30,912 nt of DNA from Nanobdellati archaeon. Lineage in GTDB: Archaea; EX4484-52; WAPT01. Under the pieces are notes generated by a model, which saw nothing but the letters and a program-made list of their open reading frames with translations, had not been told where the DNA came from and did not search any database. The number at the start of each line of letters is the position of its first letter. Position 1 is the stretch's first letter. The stretch covers positions 1 through 30,912 of the forward strand of contig WAPT01000023.1 of the NCBI GenBank assembly GCA_015520605.1, written 5' to 3'. The translations under genes and the position numbers were made by a program. Positions 1 to 23,861 of this stretch are shown piece after piece.

Positions 1-869
1 AGCAATTTTATCTCTCTTAAATACCTTTTTAACCCTTCCTTCCATGAAGGCATTCCCAGATTCAGCTTTTTGAGTTTCGCATTCTCAAGTGCTGAAAATC
101 TCGGTCTTTCAGCAAGTCTGCCGAGCTCACCTGAGGAAATGGGTTCAATCTCAATATCCCAGCCGAGCATATCAAAAATAGATTTCGCAAATTCGTACCA
201 AGAACAATAACCTTCATTCACCATATGATACACTCCGAATTCTGGCTCCAGCTTCAAGAACTTTATCAGAGCTGTGGCAACATCTTTGGTATGGGTGGGG
301 CTGATTATCTGATCGTCAACTACCCTCAAGCTCTCTTCTTGTTTCGCTTTTTCTATTACCCAGTTAACGAAGTTACCTCCTTTACCTCTGGCTCCTGCTT
401 TTCCATAAAGAGCTGCAACTCGAATCACATAATGCTTGGGAGAATAATTTCTCGTGAATATCTCTCCAGCGTACTTACTCGCTCCGTAAACATTTACGGG
501 ATTTGGAATATCCGTCTCAACATAAGGCTCTCCTTTTTTACCGTCAAAAACATAATCTGTGCTTATGTAAATATTGACGGCATCGAGCTCATTTACAACC
601 TTCGCAACATTGAGAGCACCAACGGCATTCACATTAAAGGCTTCCTCCGCGCAAATCTCGGCATCATCCACCCTAACATATGCCGCACAGTTAATGATGA
701 CGTCTGGTTTAATTTTCTTTAAAATTGTTAAACTTTTCAAATCGGTAACGTCAACATCCTTATGAGTTAACGGAATAACTTTAAAAGACGGGACTTCATT
801 AAAGACCTCAACGATGTCTGATCCAAGCTGACCGCTCGCACCGATAACAGCAATTTTTACCTGATCCAT
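1..869 (-). CDS. rfbD: dTDP-4-dehydrorhamnose reductase (3' end runs off the window; not in the ORF track)
   Basis: Manual translation from ATG at 869: MDQVKIAVIGASGQLGSD (GxxGxxG), IINCAAY, ISTDYVFDG, NVYGASK (YxxxK), DQIISPT, RPRFSALE. The frame stays open to position 1. It overlaps the rfbC stop (TAATG) and has SD-like AGGTGA upstream. Confidence 0.95.
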   Translation of the reverse strand, partial: MDQVKIAVIGASGQLGSDIVEVFNEVPSFKVIPLTHKDVDVTDLKSLTILKKIKPDVIINCAAYVRVDDAEICAEEAFNVNAVGALNVAKVVNELDAVNIYISTDYVFDGKKGEPYVETDIPNPVNVYGASKYAGEIFTRNYSPKHYVIRVAALYGKAGARGKGGNFVNWVIEKAKQEESLRVVDDQIISPTHTKDVATALIKFLKLEPEFGVYHMVNEGYCSWYEFAKSIFDMLGWDIEIEPISSGELGRLAERPRFSALENAKLKKLNLGMPSWKEGLKRYLREIKL

Positions 870-1426
870 TAAAATACATCACCTTTCTCAATCAATTTTT
901 TTAAGGTGGTCCAACTTTTGTCTTTCTCAGAAAGTATGGGATTTTTTATGGGCCACTCAACACCAACATCAGGATCATTCCATATCAAGCCGCGCTCATA
1001 TTCTGGAGCGTAAACATTATCTACTTTGTATATGACTTCCGCAACATCACTGAGCACGACAAATCCGTGAGCAAAACCACGAGGTATGTAAAGCATATGC
1101 TTGTTTTCCTCAGAAAGTACAGCACCCACCCATTTCCCAAAAGTCGGCGAGTTTCTTCTTAAATCCACCGCCACATCAAAAATTTCTCCTCGCACGCACC
1201 TCATGATTTTAGCCTGTGCGTAAGGTTCTTTCTGGAAATGCAACCCTCTCAGCACCCCGTGCTTTGATCTGGAATGATTATCCTGAACAAAATCACCTTT
1301 TATGCCTGCACTTTCAAACAAATCTTTTCTGTAAGTCTCCATGAAGAAACCCCGTTCATCCTCGAATACCTTTGGGATTATCAGGATCACATCCTCTATG
1401 CCGAGCCTTTTGAATTCAAACGGCAT
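869..1426 (-). CDS. rfbC: dTDP-4-dehydrorhamnose 3,5-epimerase
   Basis: Motifs DERGFFME, QDNHSRS, GVLRGLHFQ, DVAVDLR, PRGFAHGF, YKVDN; SD GGGGTGA upstream. Confidence 0.97.
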   Translation of the reverse strand: MPFEFKRLGIEDVILIIPKVFEDERGFFMETYRKDLFESAGIKGDFVQDNHSRSKHGVLRGLHFQKEPYAQAKIMRCVRGEIFDVAVDLRRNSPTFGKWVGAVLSEENKHMLYIPRGFAHGFVVLSDVAEVIYKVDNVYAPEYERGLIWNDPDVGVEWPIKNPILSEKDKSWTTLKKLIEKGDVF

Positions 1427-2384
1427 ATGTCACCCCCTTGATCAGAGGTTCCCACCACCACTTATTGTTGACATACCATTCCACGGTTTTTCTAAGTCCT
1501 TCCTCAAAGCTCACTTTGGGTTCCCATCCCAGCCTTCTTATCTTGGTTGAATCAATAGAATACCGGTAATCATGCCCGGGCCTGTCCTCCACAAACCTTA
1601 TCAGGCTTTCAGGCTTGTTCAAATACTTTAAGATCAGCTTAACAACATCGATGTTCCTTCTCTCGTCGTTTGCCGCAACATTATAGATCTCTCCGGCTTT
1701 TCCCTTTCTCATAACAAGCTCTATAGCTCCACAGTTGTCCATCACATAAGTCCAGTCTCTAACGTTGGTACCATCCCCATAAAGAGGTAGCGGTTTGTCA
1801 TGCATAGCAAGTATAATAAACTTCGGTATGAGCTTTTCAGGATACTGGTAAGGACCGTAGTTATTGCTAGGCCTGACTATCACAACCGGCAGTCCGTAAG
1901 TCCTGTGGTAAGCTCTGCACAGCATATCTCCCGAGGCTTTTGAGGCTGAGTAAGGAGAGGAGGGGTCAAGCCTGTCCTCCTCTTCAAAAGAACCTTCCCT
2001 TATGGAACCGTACACTTCATCAGTGCTGATATGCACGAACTTATCAATCTCCCTCTTCCTGACGAACTCGAGCAGATTGTAAACTCCAAAAATATTCGTC
2101 CTTATGAACGGTTCGGGATTTTTTATGGAATTATCGACATGTGTTTCTGCGGCAAAATTAACCACAACATCCACACCTCCAACCTTCTCTAGATCCTCAG
2201 CTTTTGTTATATCACCTTTAATCAACTCTATCTTATCCATAACATCCTTCAAGTTTTCCATTCTCCCTGCATACGTGAACTTGTCAAGAACAACAATTTC
2301 AGCATCACTTCCGTACTTCTGCAGAAGCAACCTGACGAAGTTGTTGCCGATAAACCCCGCGGCACCCGTAACGAGAATCCTCAT
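1416..2384 (-). CDS. rfbB: dTDP-glucose 4,6-dehydratase
   Basis: GAAGFIG, DKFTYAG, FAAETHVD, STDEVYG, SPYSASK, NNYGPYQ, DRPGHD; SD GAGGTG upstream. Confidence 0.97.
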   Translation of the reverse strand: MRILVTGAAGFIGNNFVRLLLQKYGSDAEIVVLDKFTYAGRMENLKDVMDKIELIKGDITKAEDLEKVGGVDVVVNFAAETHVDNSIKNPEPFIRTNIFGVYNLLEFVRKREIDKFVHISTDEVYGSIREGSFEEEDRLDPSSPYSASKASGDMLCRAYHRTYGLPVVIVRPSNNYGPYQYPEKLIPKFIILAMHDKPLPLYGDGTNVRDWTYVMDNCGAIELVMRKGKAGEIYNVAANDERRNIDVVKLILKYLNKPESLIRFVEDRPGHDYRYSIDSTKIRRLGWEPKVSFEEGLRKTVEWYVNNKWWWEPLIKGVTYAV

Positions 2385-2394
2385 TCAGAACACC

Positions 2395-3450
2395 TCATAC
2401 GAACACTCTCGAATGATCTCCTATCACGAATTTCTTTCCTTTGGGGTGGCTCTCTTCCTTTATAATTTTCACGTCCCTCCCTATCAAACTCTCAAGCAGT
2501 CTGCCGCCATTTATTATGGTTGTGCCGTCCATTATTATGGAATCCTCCACTTCGGTGTTTTCTATAACACAACCATTACCTATGCTCGTGTACGGTCCGA
2601 TATAAGAATTCCTTATTTTGGTATTTTTTCCTATTACAACGGGCCCTTTAATCGTTGTGTTCTCATCTATTTCAACACCTTCCTCTATCACAACTCTGCC
2701 CACAATCCTGCCTTTAATCTCTGACTTTATGTTCGTTTTCAGATCATCAAGAATGAGGCGATTCACGTCTATTATGTCTTCTGGTTTACCGGTATCCTTC
2801 CACCATCCAGTAACTTTTGTCCAACCAACCCGGTAACCATGGTCGATCAGCCACTGAATAGCCTCGGTAATCTCAAGCTCTCCCCTCCACGAAGGTTTCA
2901 GATGATCTATGGCCTTGTGTATAATCGGTTTAAAAAAGTAAATCCCAACAAGCGCAAGATTGCTCGGAGGAACCTTTGGCTTTTCCACCAACCTCTTTAT
3001 CGTGCCATCGTCGTTAAGCTCAGCAACTCCAAACTGTTGTGGGTTTGGCACTTCACACAACAAAATGGAGGCATCGAAATCACTCATCATGAAATGGTCA
3101 AGATGATCCACTATTCCCTCCTTCAGTATGTTATCTCCAAGGTACACCACAAAATCATCGTTTCCAAGAAATTCTCTTGCTACCTTTACAGCATGAGCTA
3201 TGCCTTTGGGATCGCCCTGATGTATGAATGTGATTTCAGCATCCCAATCTCGGCTTTTTACAGTTTCTATAACCTGTTCTCTATTCGGCCCGGTTATTAT
3301 CCCTATCTGGGTTATCCCGGCCTCTATCATATCCTCTATCGCATAAAAAAGCACGGGTTTGTTAGCCACGGGGATTAACTGCTTCTGCTGGGAGTAAGTT
3401 AGGGGCCTTAATCTGGTGCCATGACCTCCAGAAAGTATCAGACCTTTCAT
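2395..3450 (-). CDS. rfbA: Glucose-1-phosphate thymidylyltransferase, long form with C-terminal beta-helix repeats
   Basis: GGHGTRLRPLT, KQLIPVANKP, LGDN, VEKP, RGELEIT, WKDTG, followed by hexapeptide-like repeats (IKGPVVIG, SYIGPYTSIG). Confidence 0.95.
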   Translation of the reverse strand: MKGLILSGGHGTRLRPLTYSQQKQLIPVANKPVLFYAIEDMIEAGITQIGIITGPNREQVIETVKSRDWDAEITFIHQGDPKGIAHAVKVAREFLGNDDFVVYLGDNILKEGIVDHLDHFMMSDFDASILLCEVPNPQQFGVAELNDDGTIKRLVEKPKVPPSNLALVGIYFFKPIIHKAIDHLKPSWRGELEITEAIQWLIDHGYRVGWTKVTGWWKDTGKPEDIIDVNRLILDDLKTNIKSEIKGRIVGRVVIEEGVEIDENTTIKGPVVIGKNTKIRNSYIGPYTSIGNGCVIENTEVEDSIIMDGTTIINGGRLLESLIGRDVKIIKEESHPKGKKFVIGDHSRVFV

Positions 3451-3474
3451 ATTGTTCTATAAAATTTTTGTAAA

Positions 3475-3482
3475 TTTTTAAA
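3475..3482 (-). promoter_or_regulatory. Putative TATA box for a leaderless rfbA transcript
   Basis: TTTAAAAA on the minus strand 24 nt upstream of the rfbA ATG; no SD between them. Confidence 0.5.
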
Positions 3483-3483
3483 T

Positions 3484-4074
3484 TCATATTATAGGCAACC
3501 CCATCCCAACTACCAGAATCAAAGTGTTGAGAATTTAAGTGAGTTGGCGAAATTCTGAGTTGAAAAATCTTTCGAAGCCAGGACTTACGATGCCACCACA
3601 GATCAGAAAGAGGAATTCTCCACACTTCCTGAACGGATGTGAAGTGTTGATGCGATCAACACGATGAAAAATCCATAAGCTAAGTATCATTCGCCACTGC
3701 GAGAACTCATCTTTGGATTGTTTGGCGGTAAGGACGCTACCAGAACACCGGTACCGACTGAAGTAAAAAATAGCACTCATGCCGACAACGAAGCCAACGA
3801 CCGGAATGAAAACCATTTTCTTAACGTTCGCAGTTGTCTGCATAATTCTGGAAAGAGATAATAGTATCATCATAACTCCTATCGGCGTTTTCAGAGCTAT
3901 GGAGTACTCCCCATAACCCTTTTGATGATCGCAGAATAAACGGGATCAGCATCAACCGCAACTATCAGTGTAATACCCAGAAAAATGAGAATTGACACAC
4001 CACTACACCACAACCCACCCCGCTTAATCTGACCAAAATCCCACTGCTAAACTCCACAATATAAATGGTGCCAT
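3484..4074 (-). pseudogene. Sulfite exporter TauE/SafE family pseudogene (several frameshifts, stops and deletions)
   Basis: Stitching minus-strand frames gives MAPFILWSLAVGF/LVRLSGVGCGVV/SILIFLGITLIVAVDADPVYSAIIK ... VVGFVVGM/FTSVGTGVLVAS ... LAYGFFIVLIASTLHIRSGSVE ... ILNTLILVVGMGLPII*. This matches the two-repeat TauE pattern (GxxGVGGG..P..AVGTDL / TSVGxG..VGTDLA). The track ORF 3535..3873 is one fragment of it. Confidence 0.8.
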
Positions 4075-4083
4075 CACAACACA

Positions 4084-4617
4084 TCACAAATATCCAAGTT
4101 CTCTCATTCTTTCGAGAATGAGTTCAGTTTCCTCCTCAACACTCATTTTGTGGCTTTCAATTCTGACTTCCGGACTTTCAGGCTCTTCATAAACACCGTC
4201 ATAGCCTGTTAAGCCTTTAATCTCACCTTTCACGGCCTTTGCATAGAGCCCCTTGGGATCTCGTCTTATTCTCACCTCCAGAGGAGCGTAAACATAAACT
4301 TCCACAAACCTTCCGATTTCCTTCCTTGCATACTCCCTGACCTTTCTGTAGGGGGAGATCAATGACACGATAACTATTATTCCATTTCTGCTGAGCAGCT
4401 TGGCCATGTGAATCACAATTCTATTATGCATCTCTCTGGCTTTCCTGTCAAAGCCGAGCTCCGGATAAAGTTCCTTTCTTATCTCATCTCCATCCAGCAC
4501 CTCAACCTTGTAACCCATTTCTTTGAGCTTTTTTTCCAGAGCTCTGGCCAAGACGGTTTTGCCAGCTCCGCTAGGCCCTGTAAGCCAGGTCACGAATCCC
4601 TCGCGCATATCAGACAT
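4084..4617 (-). CDS. cysC: Adenylyl-sulfate (APS) kinase
   Basis: P-loop WLTGPSGAGKT, LDGDEIR, SLISPY, RDPKGLY, GEIKGLTG, YEEPE. Confidence 0.96.
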   Translation of the reverse strand: MSDMREGFVTWLTGPSGAGKTVLARALEKKLKEMGYKVEVLDGDEIRKELYPELGFDRKAREMHNRIVIHMAKLLSRNGIIVIVSLISPYRKVREYARKEIGRFVEVYVYAPLEVRIRRDPKGLYAKAVKGEIKGLTGYDGVYEEPESPEVRIESHKMSVEEETELILERMRELGYL

Positions 4618-5996
4618 TCACCCATTAACGCGCTTTTAACACCGAAGAGCTTCAGAATGGTTGGAGCGAAATCATAGATGGTGCAGGTAATTTCTCTTTT
4701 CTTCTCCAGTCCCGGCAAATAGAGAGAGAACACGCCATATTCATCATGCACAGCATCATCCGGGCCGGTATCGTTCTCCCTTAAATAGGGACTGTCATAT
4801 CCTACTGTTCCAGCTGCCCTCCAGCTCAGGTTGTCAAAGTAAACCATCATATCTGGCTTATCTCCCTTAGCAACAGGATAGAGTCTTTCCGGATAGAACA
4901 CCTTCGTATCCCACTTTTCACCATTCGGCCCTCTGATGTTCTTCAGCATTTCAGCAATTTCATCACGAACCTTCCCATAATCGTCTGGATTAATAATACC
5001 TTTTGCCTCTCTGCCTTTAACATTGAGGAAAACTCTGGAATAGTAGCCACCCCATGCCCATGCAACGCTCCTATCCCAATCAACCTCAACTTTATCCAAG
5101 CGTGTAGGACATTCTCGGTTAATCACCTTCCCACCTTTCACTTTGAGCAAACCCTCCTCAATCAGCCACTGGTTTATGGCGAATGCACCTTTCATAGCTT
5201 TTATTCCATGGTCGGAAACTATTGCGATAGCTGTCTCATCCAGATCAACAAGCTTGAGAAGCTTGCCGATCTCCCTGTCTAGAAGTTTGTAGTAATCGGG
5301 AATAACATCCTTATACTTGCTGTTCTTCTCATGAAGATGGTGATTCTCATCAAAGTATTTCCAGAAAGCGTGGTGTATTCTATCAAGTCCTATTTCCACA
5401 AACTGCACATAGTTCCAATCTTTTGTTTCCATTAGGTGTCTAACGAGTTCAAATCTTTTTTCCGTCATCTCCCATATTTTTTCCTTAACCTCATCTCTTT
5501 CCTCTTTCCTGAAAACCACATCAAAAATATAATCCCCAACAATTTTCTCAACCTCAGCTTTCAGCTCCTTTGGGTAGGTGTAATCACAGTTTGTATCGGG
5601 AGTTATAAAGCAGGAGACAAGCCATCCGTTTATCTTCTTTGGTGGGTAAGATGGAGGCACACCCACAATTATGGATTTCTTTCCTTTCTCTCCGATGTAA
5701 TCCCATACCGCTTTTTCTCTTACCATCAGGCTGTGAGCTATCCAGATGTCGTTATAAGATGAGCCCTTTCTGTGCCTGAACCCGTAAAGTCCAAGCTCCC
5801 CTGGGGTTTTGCCAGTGGCCATGCACATCCAAGCAGGTATGGTTATTGCTGGAATACAGCTCTTCATGGGGCCATAAATGGATCTGCTGAGCAGCTTTCT
5901 GATGTTTGGTAAGAAATCCAAAAATCTGTCAAACAACAGGTTAGGGGGAGCGGAGTCCAGCCCTATTACAACAACTTTCCTTACATTTTCGCTCAT
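4590..5996 (-). CDS. Alkaline-phosphatase-superfamily (type I phosphodiesterase/NPP-like) cytoplasmic enzyme
   Basis: IGLD (D14), PAITIPAW (candidate Thr52 nucleophile), TGKTPGELG, DRIHH, SDHG, DAVH; no signal peptide and no CxPxR sulfatase motif. It overlaps both sat and cysC. Confidence 0.88.
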   Translation of the reverse strand: MSENVRKVVVIGLDSAPPNLLFDRFLDFLPNIRKLLSRSIYGPMKSCIPAITIPAWMCMATGKTPGELGLYGFRHRKGSSYNDIWIAHSLMVREKAVWDYIGEKGKKSIIVGVPPSYPPKKINGWLVSCFITPDTNCDYTYPKELKAEVEKIVGDYIFDVVFRKEERDEVKEKIWEMTEKRFELVRHLMETKDWNYVQFVEIGLDRIHHAFWKYFDENHHLHEKNSKYKDVIPDYYKLLDREIGKLLKLVDLDETAIAIVSDHGIKAMKGAFAINQWLIEEGLLKVKGGKVINRECPTRLDKVEVDWDRSVAWAWGGYYSRVFLNVKGREAKGIINPDDYGKVRDEIAEMLKNIRGPNGEKWDTKVFYPERLYPVAKGDKPDMMVYFDNLSWRAAGTVGYDSPYLRENDTGPDDAVHDEYGVFSLYLPGLEKKREITCTIYDFAPTILKLFGVKSALMGECLICARDS

Positions 5997-7147
5997 TCAT
6001 CCTCACCCACGAAAGGATCATCAAAGGATTTAAGCGCATCATACACTTCCTCTCTCATGAAGTGTGGAGGAACTTTTTCACCTCTCGTAATCATCTCTCT
6101 TATCTTCGTACCGCTAAAATACTCTCTATATTCTTTTGGATGGGGACACACCTTTTCATTCACTATGCTCCCGCATTTCTTACAGAAAAAGAACTCTCTG
6201 AAGAACATCGGCACTATCCCGAGATCGGGAAACTCTTCGAATATCTCCTGAGCTTCGTAGGGTTTGTAGAAGTTACCAACTCCTGCATGATCCCGCCCAA
6301 CTATGAAATGCGTACACCCGAAATTTTTGCGCATTATCGCATGATGCACAGCTTCTCTTGGACCGGCATACTTCATCTCGTATCTGACCGTGGCAAGCAC
6401 GGAAGCGTTTGTGGGGTAATAGTTCCTGAAGAGCACCTCATAACACCTCAGGATGACATCATCCTTATAGTCCCCTTTCTTCTTTTTACCTATGACAGGA
6501 TTTATGAACAATCCGTCAACAAATGTCAGAGCCGCTTTCTGGACATACTCGTGCCCCATGTGCGGCACGTTCCTTGTTTGAAAAGCCACTATCGTGTTCC
6601 AGCCCCTCTCTTTGAAGAGCACTCTCGTTTCAACAGGTCTTAATGTGTAAGCTGCGAACGGATTTTCAACCTCATTTAAAAGTTCTATCTCTCCGCCCAC
6701 CAGGTATTCTCCCATATTTATAACTTTCCTGACCCCCGGATGCTCCTCACTGGATGTCCTGAAGACCTTCTCGGAGAACTCCTTTTTATCAAATCGATAT
6801 ATTTCATCAACATACATCCTGGCAATTACTTCCCCACCGTGAAAGAGAAGCACGGCATCACCTTCATCAAAATTCACAGAGTCCTCTGGAGCGTCGAGCA
6901 CTATGGGAATCGTCCACGGCAGATCATTAGGAAGCCTCATATGCTCAAGAACAGATGAGAGTTCATAGCTCCTCATGAAACCTGTCAGCGGCGAATAGAT
7001 TCCATGAGCTATGTTCTCAGCATCTATGGCCACAGCTGTGCTCACAGTCAGCTTTGGAAACTCATCTTTCTCGCTCAGTATTCTCTCCCTTGTTTTTCGT
7101 GCAGCAATTTTTCTAACTAACTTATCTCCATGGGGTTTTGAGACCAT
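5993..7147 (-). CDS. sat: Sulfate adenylyltransferase (ATP sulfurylase)
   Basis: FQTRNVPHMGHE (QxRN/HxGH), YAGPREA, GRDHAG, Zn site CKKC...CPH, SGTKIR. The start is probably ATG 7147 (MVSKPHG); the track starts at GTG 7156. Confidence 0.96.
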   Translation of the reverse strand: MVSKPHGDKLVRKIAARKTRERILSEKDEFPKLTVSTAVAIDAENIAHGIYSPLTGFMRSYELSSVLEHMRLPNDLPWTIPIVLDAPEDSVNFDEGDAVLLFHGGEVIARMYVDEIYRFDKKEFSEKVFRTSSEEHPGVRKVINMGEYLVGGEIELLNEVENPFAAYTLRPVETRVLFKERGWNTIVAFQTRNVPHMGHEYVQKAALTFVDGLFINPVIGKKKKGDYKDDVILRCYEVLFRNYYPTNASVLATVRYEMKYAGPREAVHHAIMRKNFGCTHFIVGRDHAGVGNFYKPYEAQEIFEEFPDLGIVPMFFREFFFCKKCGSIVNEKVCPHPKEYREYFSGTKIREMITRGEKVPPHFMREEVYDALKSFDDPFVGEDE

Positions 7148-7174
7148 ACGTCTCACGATAACTCATAAGCTTTT

Positions 7175-7408
7175 TCAGTCGAGATAGCCGAGAGCCCTCA
7201 ACCTTTCCTTGACCTTTTCCTCTTCTTCTTTGCTGAATACCTCTTCTTTTTCCTCTTCCTCCAGGCTTGCGAGTACCTCCCTGAGCACATAAGTCACATA
7301 GTCGGAAACCGATGTGAATCCCGTATCTTCTATCCTTTTCTTTATTTTCTCATAGAGCGGAGTTGGAATGGAGACAGTAGTATACTTCTTTTTCTTATCC
7401 TCACTCAT
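7175..7408 (-). CDS. CopG-like ribbon-helix-helix transcriptional regulator with acidic linker and C-terminal ERLRALGYLD tail
   Basis: YTTVSIPTPLYEKIKKRIEDTGFTSVSDYVTYVLRE fits an RHH pattern; strong SD GAGGTGA; first gene of the sat operon. Confidence 0.88.
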   Translation of the reverse strand: MSEDKKKKYTTVSIPTPLYEKIKKRIEDTGFTSVSDYVTYVLREVLASLEEEEKEEVFSKEEEEKVKERLRALGYLD

Positions 7409-7420
7409 GCTCTCACCTCT

Positions 7421-7458
7421 TTAATTATACTTAATTACATGTAATTAAATATTATAAA
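7421..7458 (-). promoter_or_regulatory. Promoter of the RHH-sat operon with a perfect 18-bp palindromic operator candidate
   Basis: TTAATTACATGTAATTAA at 7431-7448 is a perfect palindrome, with an extra TTAATTA half-site at 7421-7427. Minus-strand TATA TTTATAAT lies at 7458-7451. Confidence 0.75.
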
Positions 7459-7835: not shown

Positions 7836-9371
7836 TCACCTCACCATTCTTTTCAATATCTTGATCCACTTTTCAACAGGAAGGTCGAGTTTCTGTCCTA
7901 ATTTTCTGACCATAATAATATCCTCCTCATCAAAGGCCCTAATAGTTACAAGAAGCATGGCATAAACGAACCCGAAAACCAGAAGGAAAAGAACCGCCAC
8001 AAAAATCGTGACTCTGATCATGGAGGAGAGGAAACCCACAATACTTATAGAAATCAGGCTGGCAACAATGGATTTAAGATAGCTTGCTGTAAAGGGGTGG
8101 ATTCTCCATGAAAGATAGAGCTTGGATGAGTACAGAGCATTGAGAATGATAATGGCAGTTGCAGATGCCGCAGCAGCACCGACCATTCCGTATCTGGGGA
8201 TGAGAATGTAGTTGAGCAGAATGTTTGTTGTTCCTCCGACCAGACCGGCAAAAAACAGGAATCGCGTGTTCCCGAAAACGATCAGAGTGTATCCGTTCAG
8301 TCCAAGCATGACGTTTATGAGGAATGCGAGGGAGAGTATTCTCAGTGCTGGAGCTGCAGCGAGATAATCATGACCAAACAGTATGTTTATCACGGCCTTT
8401 GGGAACACGAACATGATAACAAATAATGGCAGGGCACCGAACATAACCCATTTGGTAAGAATTTGGTATATTCTGCCTATCTCGCTTATTTTGTTACGCG
8501 CGTACAACGAAGAACAGAAGGGCCCGTATATGAAGGATATGAATCCGAGAAACATACCGAGCTGTTTCGCGATCGGAACGGCAACATTGTAAACACCCAC
8601 CACTTTGCTCCCATAAAAATAACCAAGCATCACGGTATCAGTCCATGCCATCACGAGGGCTATGAGGGATGTTACGGCAAGCGGAGCCGAGAATCTTATA
8701 AGCATCTTGACGGTCTTGAAATCAGGAGCGAGCCTTTTGATCTCAACGAACTTTTTGATTATCATGCTGTACGACAGAAAAACGAAAAGATACACGAAAC
8801 CCACACCGAACACAACGGCATTTATGTTCAGGTCAAGAAGAACGCTGAGAACAGCCACGATGAGTATTCCTGCAGGGATACCAGCGTTGGATATCAGAGC
8901 CACGGCTTTGGCTCGTTCAATTCCTCTCAAAACGGCAACTTCAATTGCTATTAGGGGAGAAATAAAAATGGCAAGTAAGCCGGCAAGAATTGCTGAAGAT
9001 GCATCGGGCTTGTGTAGGAGGTGGATGGCTATAGCATCCTTCATGATGTAAACGAATGCGGTCACAAGAATCGCGGTCAGCGAAACAGCAAAGAGAGATG
9101 AGGTTATGATGTGATCGTATCTTTTTCGCTTACCCTTCAGATACCCTATAAACCTTACAACTCCCTCTCCCATCCCTAGGGTGGCCACCATCGTGGAAAT
9201 GGACAGTATGGTCAGGAACATCACATAAATTCCATACTGCTCCGGCCCGTAATGTCTACCCAATATGACCTTACTGAAGAAGGAGAAAAACTTTCCTGCC
9301 ATCGTGCCCGTGAAAAGATAAGCTGCGCCCTTTGCTATTCTTGAGAGGCCGACACCAACATCGTTTTCCAT
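7836..9371 (-). CDS. Oligosaccharide flippase (Wzx/MOP superfamily)
   Basis: About 14 hydrophobic segments, GPEQYG, FSAPL, WTDTVMLG, VGVYNVA, NILLNYILIPRYGMVGAAAA. The start is probably ATG 9371 rather than 9410, which lies inside aglH. Confidence 0.93.
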   Translation of the reverse strand: MENDVGVGLSRIAKGAAYLFTGTMAGKFFSFFSKVILGRHYGPEQYGIYVMFLTILSISTMVATLGMGEGVVRFIGYLKGKRKRYDHIITSSLFAVSLTAILVTAFVYIMKDAIAIHLLHKPDASSAILAGLLAIFISPLIAIEVAVLRGIERAKAVALISNAGIPAGILIVAVLSVLLDLNINAVVFGVGFVYLFVFLSYSMIIKKFVEIKRLAPDFKTVKMLIRFSAPLAVTSLIALVMAWTDTVMLGYFYGSKVVGVYNVAVPIAKQLGMFLGFISFIYGPFCSSLYARNKISEIGRIYQILTKWVMFGALPLFVIMFVFPKAVINILFGHDYLAAAPALRILSLAFLINVMLGLNGYTLIVFGNTRFLFFAGLVGGTTNILLNYILIPRYGMVGAAAASATAIIILNALYSSKLYLSWRIHPFTASYLKSIVASLISISIVGFLSSMIRVTIFVAVLFLLVFGFVYAMLLVTIRAFDEEDIIMVRKLGQKLDLPVEKWIKILKRMVR

Positions 9372-9393
9372 AGAGGTAGATTGAACTTCATTT

Positions 9394-10389
9394 TTAAAAG
9401 AGATAACCATAATAGATCAAAACGAGAACACATATCAGGAACTCTGTAGAGAGTATGAACACCACCACATCCCTCTCATAAACCTTCTTTTTGATTTTCC
9501 TCAGAATCCACAGTGCAAGATGGGTGAAGTGGTAGATTCCATCGTACGGCATTTCGAGGCTGTTGTCCTTTTTCACTTTTCCGAACGCTTCAGCTTTAAA
9601 CCTCTTCCTGAGATTGAACAGGAAATCGAAATAATATGGTAGGAATATCAGGACGGCGATCTTTTCCATGTTGCCGAGCACGGCCATACACGCAATAAAT
9701 GCTCCCACACCGTAGGTTAATGTGTCCCCAGGAAATACCTTCGCGGGATACCAATTGTAAACAAGAAATGCAAGCAAAGCGAAAACCATGGCAAGACCAA
9801 TCACTGCCAACCAAACATAACCGTTTACATAAGCCACATAGCTGAGGGTGGAGAGAAGAATGACACCCATTCCTGCCTCAAGTCCATTGTATCCAGCAAG
9901 CATGTTGAAAGCATTGCTAGCACCCATCACACCGATGGGCACGATAAAAAGAGGATAGAGGATGCCAAAATTCACAGCTCCAATAAACGGCAGATGCATA
10001 ATACTCTTCCCCGCATTGACCGCCGAGAGTGCATAGGCGGCAAGAAAAGTCAGAGGTGGCTTGTGCCACTGCCTTAATCCTATTTTCCATCCGAGTAGAT
10101 CATCAATCATACCGATAAACGCTATGATTAGGATTGTGAGAAGAGCTGCATAAATGTAAGTCACAACGTTCGTGCTTTTCTCAACGAAAACGAGTTTGGC
10201 AACGAGAAAAATTACGGAAGCCGTGAATCCGGCCATGACTGCTATCCCCCCCATTTCTGCGACTTCTGGTTTGCTGTATTTATTCATGTCTTTTCCTACA
10301 AGACCAATCCTCTTTGCTGCTTTAATCCATTGTTTCGTAAAGAAAAATGTTGCAATGAATGATAAAAGCGGAACAATTATTGTGCACAT
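9394..10389 (-). CDS. aglH: UDP-GlcNAc:dolichyl-phosphate GlcNAc-1-phosphate transferase (GPT/Alg7/AglH type, glycosyltransferase family 4)
   Basis: GKDMNK..EMGG, GMIDDLL, NAFNMLAGYNGLEAG, YPAKVFPGDT (GPT-type rather than MraY FMGD). The start is probably ATG 10389 after SD GGTGG. Confidence 0.88.
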   Translation of the reverse strand: MCTIIVPLLSFIATFFFTKQWIKAAKRIGLVGKDMNKYSKPEVAEMGGIAVMAGFTASVIFLVAKLVFVEKSTNVVTYIYAALLTILIIAFIGMIDDLLGWKIGLRQWHKPPLTFLAAYALSAVNAGKSIMHLPFIGAVNFGILYPLFIVPIGVMGASNAFNMLAGYNGLEAGMGVILLSTLSYVAYVNGYVWLAVIGLAMVFALLAFLVYNWYPAKVFPGDTLTYGVGAFIACMAVLGNMEKIAVLIFLPYYFDFLFNLRKRFKAEAFGKVKKDNSLEMPYDGIYHFTHLALWILRKIKKKVYERDVVVFILSTEFLICVLVLIYYGYLF

Positions 10390-10412
10390 ATCTACGACCA
10401 CCCATCAATTAA

Positions 10413-12932
10413 TTAATTGTTAAAAACACTGTAATCTCTTGCCTGTTTTACCCAGTTCGTGCCGTTGTAAACAATGAGTCCCTTCCAGCCATACTTTTTC
10501 CACCATTTTATTAGTTCATTCCTACTCCTGTCCGGAATGATCGTGTGATTCACCTTGTATATCTTAACTTCCCCGTTATCGAAGACTTTGGTGAGATAAT
10601 CTATACCCTTCCCGTTCATGAAAAACAGTCTATGAAACACCGAATTAAACATGTCCTTCGTGGCGAGTAGGGCGACAGATGAGGTCAGTACCACACACAT
10701 GTTCATAGCTGGCTTGTCCTCAGGAACATCGAGTTTGTAGATGTTATTTTGAGTGCACAAATATTTTATGTAAGCGATGCCCCGGGGTGTGACCAATGCT
10801 ATGCTGCCTCCCAAACCCCCATCATTTTTAATAGGAACCCAGAGAGCATAGTTCCCGCTTCTATAAACAAAAACCGTAACATTGCCTTTCCTCATTGTTT
10901 TCGAGGGGTCGAGGAAGAAATAAGAATAAGATCTGATCTTGTAATAATCCCTCCTTCTCGTGATCATTTGGGCTATTTTGGACATAGCAGCATACTTACC
11001 TATCATGGACGCGTCGACAAGAACATAATCTGTACCCATCATTTCTAGGAAGAACTTTTGCTGCGTCTCATTCATCATACCTGTGAAGTACTGCGCGGTT
11101 GGGATGTTTCTATTTGCAAAGTTGTTTCCACCGTCGAGGTTCGTGGACCTATTCCCCACGGTTTCGAACCAGTATCCAAAATCCCACCAAGATAGTACGG
11201 TGGCGTTGGGTTCGGTTTTTTCCCTTAAAAATTTCATCGCCCCCGCCCAGTTCTTATCGAAACTCGGGGAAAGCGATTTTGCAAGGACTCCGGCGTTAGC
11301 AATATAACCCAACATCCCCGTGAAAACAATGAACCCGAGCACTCCGTAGAGCACATGTTTGATCGTTGTTGCTGCATCCTCGTCTTCAAGCGCAAGTCTT
11401 GAGGGAACATGTTCGACTGCCTGTCTGAAGAATTCCCATAACTTCGCAACACAAAATCCACTCATTATCGAAAACATCAGAGCTAAACCAAACATCCATC
11501 TGATCTTGGAGAGGTAACCAAGCATGGCAACAGCAACCATTGAAAGGTAGAGTGCGGAAATAACACCCTTCTCACTTCTGGCCAGCATGAATATGACAGC
11601 CATGAACGGAAATATGAACATGGCCTGGGCTATGGCATGCCCATGTAATTTAAGAAATTGGTAATATGAAAAAAAGGATGTGAGTAATAAAGCCGTTACA
11701 AGGATCTTCTCCCTCCTTTCCTTAACCCCGCGGACACCTAGGTAAATCATACCAATAAGTGCGAACAACCACATAGGCAATAATTCAAAGAGGAATTTGA
11801 AAGAACTAAGGAAAGAGTTATTCACATATCCTGAAGTGACATAATATAAGCTCAGACTATGTGTGAAGTCATTTACGGTAGGGATTATGTCCTCAGCAAC
11901 CGTCGACTCGACCAGCGCTTGGTGATAAAACAGGTAGTGGTGTATTCCTATGGCTATTCTTGCTATCGTACCAGACACCATACCACCCACAATTAACCCA
12001 ACTACTGCTAAGGAGAACATTATCGGCATGAAATATTCAAACTTCTCTTTCGAAATGAGCTTCTTACGTTTAACAACCTCTCTAATCCATAAAAATACCA
12101 GAGCACCTATGTTAACAGCAAATATGGTTTTGGTTATTTTGTAAATTGGCATGAAAAGCGGAATCAGTGAAAGCAAACACACAATGGTGTAGGTCTTCAC
12201 CACACTCTTAGGGACATTGTTGACCAGCAACAGTGCGAAAATAAAAAGAGCATATCCCAGATAGAGCTGCTGAACGCCCCCCCACATGGTGGCCATTATC
12301 GCCATACTCAGGCCAGAAGCTATCGCAGACAAGACGGAATCTCTTTTTATCGCTCGCACAAAAAAATAGAATGAGAGAAGCATGAAGAATCCAGCATTCG
12401 GTTCTTTTTCAAAGAATCCCGCCGAAGTTCTGAACATCACTCCCGCAAGTGTCGCGTAGAAGAATGCTGCAGCAAGCCCGGAGTACTTGTTGTATATCTC
12501 TTTTCCTATCAAATAAATCAGTACGGTGAAAAGAGCACCCATAACCGCAGGCTCGATCTTGGCGTATACCCAAAAATCAATGGAATGCCTCAGAAGTTTT
12601 GTGAGGATGAGGTATATGAAAGCAGGGACTATGTACATCCCCGGATACTCTTCATGCGGATCTATACCCGTTGGGTAGTATCTCATTAGGTCAAGATGGG
12701 GTAATTGTAGGCTGTGCGTCACAGCATACCAGTTCATCCTATAAAGATAGTATGGGTCTATGGCAGTGAGGTACTCGAATCTTGCTGGCAGAATTCTGTA
12801 GTAAAATGCAAGCATGGTTATGGCAACAACAAGAAGCTCGACATGATGGTCGTAAAGAAAGTTCAGAGCATGATCGAGAAAACATCTGGATGGTTTTTTC
12901 TTAACCTTCAAACTCTCCTTTTTTGTTGCCAT
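10413..12932 (-). CDS. aglB: Oligosaccharyltransferase STT3/AglB
   Basis: DPYYLYR, RTSAGFFEKE, STVAE (TIXE-like), about 13 TM segments, SWWDFGYW, DGGN, DASMIGKYAAM. The start is probably ATG 12932, since the track start overlaps ubiA. Confidence 0.95.
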   Translation of the reverse strand: MATKKESLKVKKKPSRCFLDHALNFLYDHHVELLVVAITMLAFYYRILPARFEYLTAIDPYYLYRMNWYAVTHSLQLPHLDLMRYYPTGIDPHEEYPGMYIVPAFIYLILTKLLRHSIDFWVYAKIEPAVMGALFTVLIYLIGKEIYNKYSGLAAAFFYATLAGVMFRTSAGFFEKEPNAGFFMLLSFYFFVRAIKRDSVLSAIASGLSMAIMATMWGGVQQLYLGYALFIFALLLVNNVPKSVVKTYTIVCLLSLIPLFMPIYKITKTIFAVNIGALVFLWIREVVKRKKLISKEKFEYFMPIMFSLAVVGLIVGGMVSGTIARIAIGIHHYLFYHQALVESTVAEDIIPTVNDFTHSLSLYYVTSGYVNNSFLSSFKFLFELLPMWLFALIGMIYLGVRGVKERREKILVTALLLTSFFSYYQFLKLHGHAIAQAMFIFPFMAVIFMLARSEKGVISALYLSMVAVAMLGYLSKIRWMFGLALMFSIMSGFCVAKLWEFFRQAVEHVPSRLALEDEDAATTIKHVLYGVLGFIVFTGMLGYIANAGVLAKSLSPSFDKNWAGAMKFLREKTEPNATVLSWWDFGYWFETVGNRSTNLDGGNNFANRNIPTAQYFTGMMNETQQKFFLEMMGTDYVLVDASMIGKYAAMSKIAQMITRRRDYYKIRSYSYFFLDPSKTMRKGNVTVFVYRSGNYALWVPIKNDGGLGGSIALVTPRGIAYIKYLCTQNNIYKLDVPEDKPAMNMCVVLTSSVALLATKDMFNSVFHRLFFMNGKGIDYLTKVFDNGEVKIYKVNHTIIPDRSRNELIKWWKKYGWKGLIVYNGTNWVKQARDYSVFNN

Positions 12933-12958
12933 GCTCCCAAATAAAGACGATGAGCTTT

Positions 12959-13807
12959 TTAAGAGTTTCCCCACACTCCGTAGATTCCAGCAAAACACAG
13001 AATGATCCAGATCAGCAGCCCGATTAACCACACCTTGTCGAGGAAGATCAGCTCGGTGTTTCTGGCAATCCTGTCATCAACCTCGGTAAGGTAAAGGTGT
13101 CTCAGCACCAGAAATGTTGCCGGGATTAAACTGAGCATAAGAAACGTGTTCGTATGCTTGCTCTGGAAGGAATAGAGAGCATAGCTCACCAGCACGATCG
13201 AAGCGAGGATGGTGCGCATCCTGTCAAAAACATGTTCTTTAAGCTTGTCGTTTTTTATCCTCGCATCCCCCGTCCTTTTTCCGGACGCCAGAAATAAAGC
13301 TATAAAGAAAATCATAACAACCAGCCATGGCGATACTTCGACCCCAACAGCATACGCTCCCGCTACAGCTCTTATTATGAAGTTGAACGCTAGGCTGTGA
13401 ATATCCAAAATTTCGATTTTTTTCAGAAAAAACGAGTATAAAGATGTGTTGATCACGAGCAGAACCGGGAAAAACAGGAACGGAATGTTGACCATTAATC
13501 CAGTAATGGTGGAAAGAATTAGGAGGAACAGAGCAACAATAATGGCTTCCCTCACACTTATTTTTCCGCTCGCAATCGGTCTATGTCTCTTCTCCTTATG
13601 CTTTCTGTCATCCTCTCTATCCCTTATATCATTAATTATATAATTAAAGGATGAAGCAAAAGCAAGGGAAAAGAATGCAAACACACTCTTAACAACACTA
13701 TCAACATTAAAAAGCACACCTCCAAAAAACAGACCAACAAACACCACAAGATTTTTGTACCACTGATGCACTCTGAGAAGCTTGAGGTAATTCTCTATCA
13801 CACCCAT
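12959..13807 (-). CDS. UbiA-family polyprenyl-phosphate phosphoribosyltransferase (DPPR-synthase-like)
   Basis: LLRVHQWYKNLVVF, NYIINDIRDREDDRKHKEKRHRPIASG, YSFFLKK..ILD, FIIRAVAG, LASGKR. These are hallmarks of the decaprenyl-phosphate phosphoribosyltransferase subfamily rather than DGGGP synthase. Confidence 0.82.
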   Translation of the reverse strand: MGVIENYLKLLRVHQWYKNLVVFVGLFFGGVLFNVDSVVKSVFAFFSLAFASSFNYIINDIRDREDDRKHKEKRHRPIASGKISVREAIIVALFLLILSTITGLMVNIPFLFFPVLLVINTSLYSFFLKKIEILDIHSLAFNFIIRAVAGAYAVGVEVSPWLVVMIFFIALFLASGKRTGDARIKNDKLKEHVFDRMRTILASIVLVSYALYSFQSKHTNTFLMLSLIPATFLVLRHLYLTEVDDRIARNTELIFLDKVWLIGLLIWIILCFAGIYGVWGNS

Positions 13808-13970: not shown

Positions 13971-15383
13971 ATGAAGGCTTTTCTTTTCTACCCGCCCGGA
14001 AAGCAATTCCAGCGTGGCGAGGATAGGTGTCAAGCAAATGTTGATGCTTCCCCAACAATGACACAGAGAGCACCCATAGATATGATGTATGTCGCCGCGA
14101 TTCTGAAAGAGAAAGGAATAAAATGCAAATTCGTAGATTATCCCACAGAAGGAAAGACTTGGGAGGATTTTGAAAGAGACGTTAAGAAGTTTTCTCCAGA
14201 TATTGCGATAATGAGCGTGACCACAAGCAGCGTGCTTCATGACATGAAAGCATTCAAGATCATAAAGTCCATTAACGAAGAGTGCAAAACCATTGCAAAG
14301 GGTTCTATTTTCTTTGTTGCTCCAAAAACAGTTTTCGAAAAATTCGAGGAGTTCAAATACATGGATATTGCTGTTAAAGGAGAGATCGAATTTACCATAG
14401 CAAGTATTGTAGATAATCTGAATAAACCAGAGAACGTTAATGGTATTCTTTTCTGGAAAAGAAAAAAACTCAAAGACACGGGCAGGCCCGTATTCGGAAA
14501 TCTGGACGATTTACCTTTCCCTGATAGGAGCATAGTCAGGAACGAACTCTACATACGGCCAGACACCGGAGAGGCGCAGACAACAATCGAAACTTCCAGA
14601 GGATGTCCGGGCCTTTGCATTTATTGCTTAACGCCGATCATTTCTGGAAGAGCTCCAAGGTATCGCAGCGCAAAAAGTATTGCAGATGAGATTGAGGAAT
14701 GCGTGGAGAAATACGATATCAGGAACTTTTTCTTTCGCTCTGACACATTCACCATGAATAGAAAGCTTGTTAAAGAGGTTTGCAGAGAGATTGTGGAGAG
14801 AGGTCTTGATATTAACTGGGTTGCAAACTCAAGAGTGGATACTATAGACGCGGAAACGCTTCGATACATGAAAAAATCAGGATGCTGGCTAATTGCTTTT
14901 GGTTTCGAAACGGGCAGCGATGAGAGTAAGAAGAAGATAGGAAAATTCACAACAGTTAAGCAGGATATTGCCGCAAGAGAACTGTGCAAGAAATTTGGCA
15001 TCTATACCTACGGATTCTTTATGATGGGTTTTCCATGGGAAACGAGAAACGATATTGAAGCTACTATAAATCACATGTTCAAGCTCGATTGCGAGTTCGT
15101 TGAGCTTCATATTGCAATTCCATTCTACGGGACAAAGCTCTATGAGATTTGTAAGAGAGAGGGTCTGATCAAGCATGAAATTATCGGTGCAGATTACTTT
15201 GAAAATCCTCCTGTTGGAACAAAATATGTTAGTGCTGAAGAGCTCATAAGAATAAGGGAAGAAGCTTTGAAAAAATATTATACAAGGTCGAGCTACATTG
15301 CAAGGATGCTTCTTAAAGCAAAGAATCCGAAAGTAATGGCAAACTACATAAAATATGGAATAAAGCTTTTGAAATGGAAGTAA
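13971..15383 (+). CDS. Cobalamin-binding-domain radical SAM protein
   Basis: N-terminal B12-binding-like domain (PIDMMYVAAIL..FSPDI), ETSRGCPGLCIYC (CxxxCxxC), SDTFT, SRVD, GFETGS, FMMGFPWET, PFYGT. Confidence 0.9.
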   Translation: MKAFLFYPPGKQFQRGEDRCQANVDASPTMTQRAPIDMMYVAAILKEKGIKCKFVDYPTEGKTWEDFERDVKKFSPDIAIMSVTTSSVLHDMKAFKIIKSINEECKTIAKGSIFFVAPKTVFEKFEEFKYMDIAVKGEIEFTIASIVDNLNKPENVNGILFWKRKKLKDTGRPVFGNLDDLPFPDRSIVRNELYIRPDTGEAQTTIETSRGCPGLCIYCLTPIISGRAPRYRSAKSIADEIEECVEKYDIRNFFFRSDTFTMNRKLVKEVCREIVERGLDINWVANSRVDTIDAETLRYMKKSGCWLIAFGFETGSDESKKKIGKFTTVKQDIAARELCKKFGIYTYGFFMMGFPWETRNDIEATINHMFKLDCEFVELHIAIPFYGTKLYEICKREGLIKHEIIGADYFENPPVGTKYVSAEELIRIREEALKKYYTRSSYIARMLLKAKNPKVMANYIKYGIKLLKWK

Positions 15384-17773: not shown

Positions 17774-18400
17774 ATGCCAATAAAAAGGCTCTTACGTTTC
17801 TTCAACAGACTTTTCAAGAAAAAGAAGCAAATAAAACTCGGGATTTATGGCCCGCCCAATGGTGGGAAGACAACACTTGCCAACAGGATATGTCTTGATT
17901 GGCTGGGAGAAGAGCTGGGGAGCGCATCTCATATCCCACACGAGACTAGAAGAGTTCAGATGAAGGAAAGGGTTGTGATACAGAGCGGTGATGGAAAAAC
18001 ATTGGATCTAACCGTGGTGGACACTCCCGGCATAGCAACCAAGATAGATTATGAGAATTTTGTTAAGAAAGGGTTATCAAAAAAAGAAGCCAGAGCAAGG
18101 GCAAGAGAGGCCACACGTGGGGTAATCGAAGCCATAAAATGGCTCGACAACGTTGATGCGGTTATTGTTGTTCTCGATGCAACAAAAAATCCTGTGGATC
18201 AGGTGAATGTAACCATTTTAGGAAATCTGGAAGCCAGAAAGATACCGTTCATGATTGTTGCAAACAAAATAGATCTTAAAAAAGCCAACGTAACCAGAAT
18301 AAGGGAAGCGTTTCCTAATGCTAAGGTGATCGGAATAAGCGCGAAGTACGGCCATAACATGGATAAGTTTTACGAGGCGCTGTTTGAGCTTGTTGGCTGA
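17774..18400 (+). CDS. oapA: Era-like small GTPase OapA/ArvA
   Basis: G1 GPPNGGKT, G2 PHETR, G3 DTPG, G4 NKID, G5 SAK; ARAREATRGVIEAIKWLD and QVNVTILGNLEAR family motifs; N-terminal amphipathic helix; TATA TTTAAAAT upstream (leaderless). Confidence 0.9.
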   Translation: MPIKRLLRFFNRLFKKKKQIKLGIYGPPNGGKTTLANRICLDWLGEELGSASHIPHETRRVQMKERVVIQSGDGKTLDLTVVDTPGIATKIDYENFVKKGLSKKEARARAREATRGVIEAIKWLDNVDAVIVVLDATKNPVDQVNVTILGNLEARKIPFMIVANKIDLKKANVTRIREAFPNAKVIGISAKYGHNMDKFYEALFELVG

Positions 18401-18427
18401 GTGAGTGTCTTGGGTATGGTGAAGAAT

Positions 18428-18790: not shown

Positions 18791-18795
18791 TCTAA

Positions 18796-23809: not shown

Positions 23810-23861
23810 AAAATCCAACCACGCATCTATTAAAATTTTCTTCATTAACCAAAAGATCAGT

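Follow-up and report, generated by a model that had tools for sequence, protein, structure and literature searches.

Contig WAPT01000023.1 (30,912 nt; hereafter the window, meaning the whole stretch of DNA analyzed here, annotated by Pfam and NCBIfam profile searches) belongs to a DPANN (Nanobdellati) archaeon and carries a tight operon for the synthesis of 3′-phosphoadenosine 5′-phosphosulfate (PAPS). Its four genes share the minus strand and encode, in order, (i) a ribbon-helix-helix (RHH)/CopG-like putative regulator of 77 amino acids (7175-7408), (ii) Sat, the ATP sulfurylase (5993-7156; Pfam PUA_2, E = 7.8e-48, and ATP-sulfurylase, E = 3.6e-91; NF003166, E = 2.2e-158), (iii) P0001, a nucleotide pyrophosphatase/phosphodiesterase (NPP)-type enzyme of the alkaline-phosphatase superfamily with 468 residues (4590-5996; PF01663 Phosphodiest, E = 5e-47), and (iv) CysC, the adenosine 5′-phosphosulfate (APS) kinase (4084-4617; Pfam APS_kinase, E = 1.7e-57; TIGR00455, E = 1.7e-67). 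The role of P0001 and the use to which the PAPS is put are the subjects of this analysis.

The operon and its NPP-type enzyme

The sat stop and the NPP-type start overlap by 4 nt (ATGA). The NPP-type stop overlaps cysC by 28 nt if the kinase begins at ATG 4617 and by 4 nt (GTGA) if it begins at GTG 4593, which may be the actual start. The cassette sits downstream of genes for an STT3/AglB oligosaccharyltransferase (10413-13031), a GT4/AglH-like transferase (9394-10401), and a Polysacc_synt flippase (7836-9410), and upstream of the rmlA-rmlB-rmlC-rmlD dTDP-rhamnose operon (3-3450, with rmlD cut by the contig end), all identified by Pfam and all on the minus strand. A 427-bp intergenic region separates the flippase gene from the 77-residue open reading frame (ORF), and a spacer of about 630 bp (3451-4083) separates cysC from rmlA. 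The spacer contains one doubtful, hydrophobic ORF of 112 residues (3535-3873) without a Pfam or NCBIfam match. In relatives this place is taken by a TauE permease gene; a remnant of a TauE gene was considered here and ruled out, as tblastn finds no recognizable TauE similarity. An earlier note on this DNA, made from the letters alone, had described the tight linkage and overlaps of the four genes and their position between the aglB/aglH/flippase and rhamnose operons, and the coordinates, strand, overlaps, and flanking Pfam calls all agree with it. Its statement that PAPS reductase, a sulfite-reductase-linked route, and P-loop sulfotransferases are missing from the window is likewise borne out.

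The putative regulator is a weak call, with a below-cut-off match to Pfam RHH_1 (E = 0.0066) and a match to a NikR-type NCBIfam model (E = 0.0038). Homologs are nevertheless detected by tblastn in 26 of 49 orthologous loci and lie upstream of sat or the NPP-type gene in the loci inspected, with the exception of an Asgard locus (L023) where the gene is downstream of cysC; the Pyrococcus yayanosii ortholog is named a putative copG regulator (PMC8268124). A perfect 18-bp palindrome, TTAATTACATGTAATTAA (7430-7447, minus strand), sits between a TATA-like box (about 7447-7458, minus strand) and the RHH-like start and, judged from sequence, is a likely operator for autoregulation by the RHH-like protein. 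Palindromes of the TAATTA type precede the RHH gene in loci from Thermococcus (L005), another euryarchaeon (L020), Archaeoglobi (L034), and Bathyarchaeota (L038), and such elements accompany the cassette across phyla. Scans for sigma-70-type promoters and terminators perform no better than on shuffled sequences and are a poor guide for an archaeon.

P0001 matches PF01663 over the entire profile (positions 1-342 of 342), its sole Pfam family, and has no NCBIfam model and zero phmmer matches to PDB sequences. Every residue listed in the earlier note is found in the protein: D14, T52, D205-R206-I-H208-H209 (its DRIHH), and S261-D262-H263-G264 (its SDHG). A C/S-x-P/A-x-R motif is absent, in agreement with the same note (no CxPxR), and no hydrophobic stretch resembles a signal peptide or a membrane anchor. 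Six residues, D14, T52, D205, H209, D262, and H263, do not vary among 20 orthologs, and H417 is kept in at least 90%. The PF01663 paralogs preserve all seven positions too, with Thr or Ser as the nucleophile and H417 without exception. From NPP structures and the fold match described below, we take D14, D205, H209, D262, H263, and H417 to be the ligands of a two-metal site. Basic residues are conserved as well, with K63, R74, R206, R321, and R329 invariant and R76 and R393 nearly so; this pattern would fit a small polyanionic substrate, without telling pyrophosphate (PPi) from PAPS or 3′-phosphoadenosine 5′-phosphate (PAP).

The AlphaFold2 model of P0001, built from the 20-ortholog alignment, has a predicted local distance difference test (pLDDT) score of 92.5 and a predicted template modeling (pTM) score of 0.92. 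Foldseek matches it to ENPP1, ENPP3, snake-venom phosphodiesterase, Xanthomonas NPP, ENPP6/7, and autotaxin (E = 1.7e-18 and weaker; TM scores 0.51-0.67), with no sulfatase among the top matches listed. The best structural matches to the model, ENPP1, ENPP3, and Xanthomonas NPP (E = 1.7e-18 to 1e-16), appear to share the Thr nucleophile and the Asp/His ligands with it. In contrast to these enzymes, with which it has only 12-17% sequence identity, P0001 is cytoplasmic and carries a big extra segment at about residues 265-400; moreover, the substrate cited for its Thermococcus onnurineus ortholog is PPi and not a nucleotide diester.

That ortholog belongs to a cassette already described in Thermococcales. 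The P. yayanosii cluster (PYCH_17520-17560) is reported to consist of a putative copG, an ATP sulfurylase, a DHH PAP (pAp) phosphatase, a “type I phosphodiesterase/nucleotide pyrophosphatase”, and an APS kinase, with a TauE gene adjoining; the phosphodiesterase is speculated to degrade PPi, and the DHH enzyme is active on pAp in both P. yayanosii and T. onnurineus (PMC8268124). According to the account of the cluster in the same paper, neither a sulfotransferase (KEGG) nor an enzyme for the conversion of sulfite to sulfide is identified in P. yayanosii, and its authors call the significance of the pathway unclear. The T. onnurineus genes are given as TON_1704 (APS kinase), TON_1705 (pyrophosphatase), TON_1706 (PAP phosphatase), and TON_1707 (ATP sulfurylase) (PMC4463584, citing Lee et al. 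2009), and a table in PMC9653972 lists TON_1705 as an inorganic pyrophosphatase with a pH optimum of 9.5, a kcat of 2.1 s−1, and a Km of 18.8 μM. P0001 is orthologous to PYCH_17550 (P0015; 74% identity) and to the T. onnurineus NA1 member (P0310; 70% identity). The cassette itself, and a function for its NPP-type member, are thus already published.

The window copy shares gene order and strand with the Thermococcales cluster (copG/RHH-like, sat, NPP-type, cysC) but differs from it in three respects: no DHH pAp phosphatase gene separates sat from the NPP-type gene, no TauE permease gene adjoins, and the surroundings are an AglB/flippase/rml island in a DPANN genome of 0.86 Mb. The DHH gene is also absent from this position in loci L004, L023, L025, and L038 and in the bacterial loci. 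Searched by tblastn against the genome of the window, cassette DHH orthologs give weak matches only, and the cassette TauE proteins of L005 and L013 give no match at E ≤ 1e-3; the TauE gene that is present, on contig C4, is unrelated to the cassette TauE.

Distribution of the cassette and its glycosylation surroundings

From species-representative public genomes, 51 loci were collected, 49 of which hold a P0001 ortholog with 41-96% identity. The cysC gene is directly downstream of the NPP-type gene in 46 of 46 assessable loci, the other three of the 49 being cut by a contig or locus end. Of 46 loci assessable for sat, 30 have the gene at most 1.5 kb upstream and 16 lack it there, with three of the 49 again not assessable. 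Linkage of the NPP-type gene, cysC, and sat is far beyond chance. In relatives the fuller cassette reads RHH - sat - DHH/DHHA1 - NPP - cysC - TauE.

Close homologs of P0001, with 65-76% identity, come from Methanocaldococcus, Methanotorris, Pyrococcus, Thermococcus, Archaeoglobus, Geoglobus, Ferroglobus, and Korarchaeum and from metagenome-assembled genomes (MAGs) of Asgard archaea. More broadly, identity to P0001 is 64-76% in hyperthermophilic archaea and 41-54% in Bathyarchaeota, Thaumarchaeota, Asgard archaea, and bacteria, and within the same loci the NPP-type protein is at least as similar to its window counterpart as Sat is. The constancy and high conservation of the NPP-type enzyme fit a small substrate that all hosts share better than a glycan acceptor particular to one host. 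The wider P0001 family comprises 12145 representative clusters at E ≤ 0.001.

Gene fusions join the same partners: Sat-NPP (P0131), CysC-NPP (P0149), NPP-CysC (L040), and NPP-pyruvate-kinase-barrel-Sat (P0181). Further fusions connect an NPP-type domain to a family 2 glycosyltransferase (GT2) domain (P0129, 46% identity) and to a sugar-phosphate nucleotidyltransferase. In P0230 the NPP-type domain is fused to a pyruvate-kinase barrel, to which P0181 adds the ATP sulfurylase; these pyruvate-kinase fusions may represent an ATP-regenerating unit for PAPS synthesis. Some Thermococcus loci contain a DUF4258/DUF2283 pair, which resembles a toxin-antitoxin system, between the NPP-type gene and cysC (L005:7386-7856). 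In the bacterial MAG loci, at least one extra PF01663 paralog lies near sat - NPP - cysC in seven of seven cases (L041, L042, L043, L044, L046, L050, and L054), and paralogs flank the core on both sides in L041, L043, L044, and L054. L041 and L044 also carry GT1, and L041 an additional Na/sulfate symporter.

Within the host order, P0001 homologs are found in only 2 of 41 genomes, its own included, and are missing from a congeneric genome with 96% completeness, a distribution that points to recent horizontal acquisition. These observations point to a mobile archaeal cassette for PAPS supply, of which this archaeon horizontally acquired a minimal copy that was inserted in its AglB-anchored glycosylation island.

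The neighbors of the cassette are repeatedly glycosylation genes. AglB, GT4, flippase, and rml genes accompany it both in the window and in a same-genus genome (G405), rmlABCD and AglB are near it in an Archaeoglobi locus (L034), and a flippase and AglB in a bathyarchaeal one (L038). Two Methanocaldococcus loci (L013 and L019) have flippase and rml genes nearby, the former also a sulfatase-like gene, and a flippase-like gene is close to the cassette in the Asgard locus L023. In Methanocaldococcus sp. 16A a sulfatase-like gene adjoins the cassette. A large island adjoins the cassette in two complete Archaeoglobales genomes, and in both G208 and G068 the cassette is within or next to an AglB/flippase island. 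The island of Geoglobus acetivorans (G208) encodes, in order, a flippase, a methyltransferase, GT1, a 536-residue PF01663 paralog, GT2, GT1, a Sulfotransfer_3/1 protein, sugar-nucleotide enzymes, AglB, and then TauE-cysC-NPP-DHH-sat. The glycan link is not universal, since the neighbors in L022 and L024 are of another kind (Pus10, Lhr helicase).

Candidate consumers of PAPS

The host assembly has 27 contigs that total 863 kb; its completeness is 90.7%, so absences from it are not proof. It has no match to the PAPS reductase family PF01507; sulfite reductase and the APS-reductase-like PAPS reductase of M. thermolithotrophicus were not part of that search. At E ≤ 0.1 there is also no match to Sulfotransfer_1, _2, _3, or _4 (PF00685, PF13469, PF03567, and PF17784), a search that did not extend to the Stf0, Gal-3-O, and aryl-sulfotransferase families. 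The sulfatase family PF00884 has no match either. The genome-wide check that the earlier note had proposed for other PAPS consumers therefore comes back empty for these families.

Two uses of PAPS have to be considered. Sulfated N-glycans occur in haloarchaea (PMC3892788, PMC11980604), and sulfation of surface or N-linked glycans is most likely the use made of PAPS here, because no reductive enzymes were found in the genome by the searches above and because of the glycosylation surroundings. The earlier note's proposal that the operon makes PAPS for surface glycans stands on the same two grounds, the cassette abutting AglB, flippase, rml, or glycosyltransferase genes in several lineages. Sulfur assimilation, in which sulfate would be carried through to sulfide for cysteine, is the use implied by the name sulfate-assimilation cluster in PMC8268124 and PMC4463584, and some methanogens do reduce PAPS (PMC10322725). 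It is very improbable for this operon: a PF01507 reductase is missing from the 90.7%-complete genome, the part of PMC8268124 that covers the cluster names no sulfite-to-sulfide enzyme for P. yayanosii, and AglB/flippase islands enclose or adjoin the cassette in this genome as well as in G208, G068, L034, and L038.

Precedents for glycan sulfation by this enzyme superfamily exist in haloarchaea. Agl30 and Agl31 of Halobacterium salinarum are sulfatase-like N-glycan sulfotransferases of the alkaline-phosphatase superfamily, as established by deletion and heterologous expression (PMC11980604), and Agl7 (HVO_2046) of Haloferax volcanii is genetically needed for N-glycan sulfation (PMC3892788). Sulfotransferases of this superfamily in archaeal N-glycosylation are thus already published for the sulfatase-like branch. 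Like P0001, Agl7, Agl30, and Agl31 are alkaline-phosphatase-superfamily proteins encoded in an N-glycosylation cluster; unlike P0001, which matches PF01663 only, they belong to the sulfatase-like branch. Agl7, recovered here as the first gene of the published low-salt cluster in a haloarchaeal genome (P0273, L087:4438-5655) and listed under the name ‘low-salt glycan biosynthesis sulfotransferase Agl7 [Haloferax volcanii]’, matches PF00884 at E = 4.3e-18, which rules out the alternative assignment to PF01663 that had been considered. Its match covers only the C-terminal half of the Sulfatase profile, the C/SxPxR formylglycine motif is missing, and its stretch ‘ASSIPSLMSGKYP’ resembles the Thr-nucleophile helix of NPP-type enzymes. 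P0001 has no PF00884 match, and its BLASTP comparison with Agl7 is not significant (E = 1.5). The idea in the earlier note that alkaline-phosphatase-superfamily proteins serve as archaeal N-glycan sulfotransferases is accordingly supported in general by the genetics of Agl7, Agl30, and Agl31 but is not supported for P0001 itself.

The same note had also regarded P0001 as the only candidate consumer of PAPS, which does not hold, as a second, longer PF01663 paralog is encoded among glycosyltransferases about 2 kb past the left end of the window. In the host assembly this gene is on contig C12 (C12:25256-26759; L002:1468-2970), where it adjoins GT1 and is cut by the contig end. The encoded protein shares 28% identity with P0001, 74% with the paralog from the island of G208, and 94% with the copy in the same-genus genome G405. 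The latter (C14:14595-16238; L101) has 547 residues with a weak SGSH_C match and is on the contig of the cassette, in the order LPG_synthase_TM, PMT_2-type GT-C, GT2, GT1, long paralog, 197-residue ORF, GT2, and rmlD onwards. By nucleotide alignment, about 2.0 kb of G405 sequence separates the end of the host contig C12 from the start of the window, which places the long paralog in the same island as the cassette.

Long paralogs (P0302 in G208, the G068 protein, and the host C12 protein) have the Pfam family, the Thr, and the metal ligands in common with P0001, and they share an island with the cassette in G208, G068, and G405. They differ from P0001 in sequence (27-29% identity), in length (about 540 residues, with a C-terminal extension), in their placement among glycosyltransferases, and in lacking the Arg of its core D-R-x-H-H motif. 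A two-sequence comparison of the long paralog with Agl7 detects weak local similarity (E = 6e-4). Because of its placement among glycosyltransferases, the long paralog would be a better sulfotransferase candidate than P0001, although the classical sulfotransferase in the G208 island, which holds a long paralog too, tempers this candidacy.

The choice of candidate consumers varies among relatives. A sample of 401 genomes from the phylum that holds Archaeoglobi includes 41 with a cassette ortholog; as these are related and many are incomplete, the counts are descriptive only. Sulfotransfer_3 genes are present in 3 of the 41, sulfatase-like genes in 19, and long PF01663 paralogs in 13. In 7 of the 19 genomes, the sulfatase-like gene lies 3-19 kb from the cassette on the same contig.

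Role of the NPP-type enzyme

P0001 is proposed, with a probability of about 0.5, to be a PPi-removing helper of PAPS supply for glycan sulfation. In the corresponding scheme, Sat would make APS and PPi, P0001 would hydrolyze the PPi at the Thr52 two-metal site and so pull the unfavorable Sat reaction, and CysC would make PAPS. Control of the operon probably falls to the RHH-like protein, acting at the palindrome ahead of its own gene. An enzyme that the cassette does not encode would then use the PAPS to sulfate a glycan, either lipid-linked or on the surface; the best in-genome candidate for this enzyme appears to be the long PF01663 paralog about 2 kb past the left end of the window. We infer in this scheme the pyrophosphatase function of P0001, the glycan sulfation, the identity of the sulfotransferase, and the regulation. 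Module logic is one argument for it: the full cassette already covers uptake, activation, kinase, by-product removal, and regulation, so that PPi removal is the role left for the NPP-type member. The others are the cited activity of the ortholog, the constancy of the enzyme across hosts, the fusions with Sat, CysC, and pyruvate kinase, and the variability of the consumer candidates nearby. An in vitro assay of ATP sulfurylase and APS kinase was limited by rapid PPi removal (PMC10322725).

Several points weigh against a pyrophosphatase role. Enzymes of the alkaline-phosphatase type commonly hydrolyze PPi as a side activity, and the assay on TON_1705 may therefore miss the true substrate; the identity of P0310 with TON_1705, moreover, is one that we infer from gene order. 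The kcat of 2.1 s−1 is low, and T. onnurineus also has a far faster pyrophosphatase, Ton1914 (PMC9653972). Although the host genome has no family-I pyrophosphatase match, it encodes a DHH+DHHA2 protein of the family-II pyrophosphatase type, next to which a dedicated slow enzyme looks redundant. The 16 loci without sat, mostly from Archaeoglobi with two from Thaumarchaeota, retain the NPP-type gene with cysC and sometimes DHH, which ties the enzyme to PAPS or PAP more than to PPi. Agl7, with an NPP-like nucleophile region and no C/SxPxR motif, suggests that Ser/Thr-type enzymes of the superfamily may be able to transfer sulfate. Bacterial loci with three PF01663 paralogs around sat and cysC show no classical sulfotransferase within view, and 14 of the 41 cassette genomes have none of Sulfotransfer_3, a sulfatase-like gene, and a long paralog at the thresholds used.

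Part of this evidence would also suit an enzyme that attacks a pathway nucleotide at phosphorus, hydrolyzing either PAP, in place of the missing DHH pAp phosphatase, or excess APS or PAPS. The modeled NPP-like fold and active site, with ENPP1, NPP3, and Xanthomonas NPP as the best PDB matches, are compatible with such a substrate, as are the retained Thr and metal ligands and the invariant K63, R74, R206, R321, and R329, which suit a polyanionic nucleotide. The absence of the cassette DHH gene, whose orthologs give weak matches only, would leave room for a PAP hydrolase, and the persistence of the NPP-cysC pair without sat in Archaeoglobi is also in its favor. However, a dedicated DHH pAp phosphatase, the kind of enzyme found active on pAp (PMC8268124), adjoins in most archaeal relatives and would make a second PAP hydrolase redundant, and three DHH-DHHA1 proteins encoded in the host genome could take PAP here. 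Destroying APS or PAPS within the module that makes them would be futile. Nucleotide hydrolysis is thus a possible but doubtful function. It corresponds to the alternative named in the earlier note (APS, PAPS, or PAP hydrolysis), of which the hydrolytic part comes close to the published function, while the cited substrate is PPi.

The principal proposal of that note, that P0001 may itself be a PAPS-dependent sulfotransferase, is less probable still and is regarded here as unlikely. In such a reaction the sulfuryl group of PAPS would move to Thr52 and from there to a widely shared acceptor, for example a dolichyl-phosphate hexose or a nucleotide sugar. The genome lacks a detected classical sulfotransferase, PAPS reductase, or sulfatase-like gene, the 14 cassette genomes just mentioned offer no other candidate, and linkage is tighter to cysC (46/46) than to sat (30/46). 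The neighborhood analysis suggested in the note thus did find co-occurrence with both genes and, in several lineages, with glycosylation genes. The NPP-GT2 fusion P0129 and the seemingly Ser/Thr-type Agl7, without a formylglycine motif, also speak for transfer, as do the requirement for alkaline-phosphatase-superfamily proteins in archaeal N-glycan sulfation (PMC11980604, PMC3892788) and the KEGG-based account of P. yayanosii, in which no sulfotransferase is identified (PMC8268124). Yet the ortholog is cited as a pyrophosphatase with a micromolar Km (PMC9653972), and P0001 shows neither significant similarity to Agl7 (E = 1.5) nor a PF00884 match. Its identity of 64-76% across Methanococci, Thermococci, Archaeoglobi, Korarchaeota, Asgard archaea, and DPANN would be unusual for an acceptor-specific transferase, as the hosts must differ in their glycans. 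Two-zinc NPP and alkaline-phosphatase sites, moreover, strongly disfavor sulfuryl relative to phosphoryl transfer. The cassette also occurs in the non-glycan surroundings of L022 and L024, the islands of relatives hold other consumer candidates (Sulfotransfer_3, sulfatase-like, and long PF01663 proteins), and the host itself has the second paralog among glycosyltransferases.

A broader proposal can be made tentatively, namely that PF01663 enzymes with a Ser/Thr nucleophile form a further class of PAPS-dependent glycan sulfotransferases that act via sulfo-Thr on a dolichol-linked sugar. The cassette enzyme takes somewhat under half of the limited likelihood given to this proposal, and the larger share falls to the long paralog only. 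If true, it would explain the fate of PAPS in cassette-bearing archaea and bacteria without a classical sulfotransferase. The claim of new chemistry is now narrowed to two proteins, P0001 and the long paralog, the first of which has an ortholog with a published ordinary activity.

Other genes of the window touch on the glycan pathway or lie apart from it. A trio of genes next to AglB encodes a UbiA prenyltransferase (12959-13807), a B12-binding radical SAM enzyme (13971-15383), and a flavoprotein that resembles geranylgeranyl reductases (15566-16660); these proteins may have a role in the synthesis or saturation of the lipid carrier. A 646-residue protein with a lamin-tail domain (LTD; 26293-28233) could be a surface protein and hence a possible glycosylation target. 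A GTPase gene followed by those for the origin-associated proteins OapB and OapC occupies 17774-19185, a family-B DNA polymerase is encoded at 23784-26306, and a replication origin may lie near 17.2-17.8 kb.

Relative to the published cassette, the present analysis adds a recurrent association with glycosylation islands, the recent arrival of a minimal form in a DPANN genome, and a second NPP-type paralog as a sharper candidate for the PAPS consumer. For the PAPS sink left open by PMC8268124, the glycosylation contexts in several phyla point to glycan sulfation over sulfur assimilation. A reduced DPANN archaeon appears to have spent genome space on horizontally acquired sulfate activation for its surface, which bears on how symbionts dress their cell surface.

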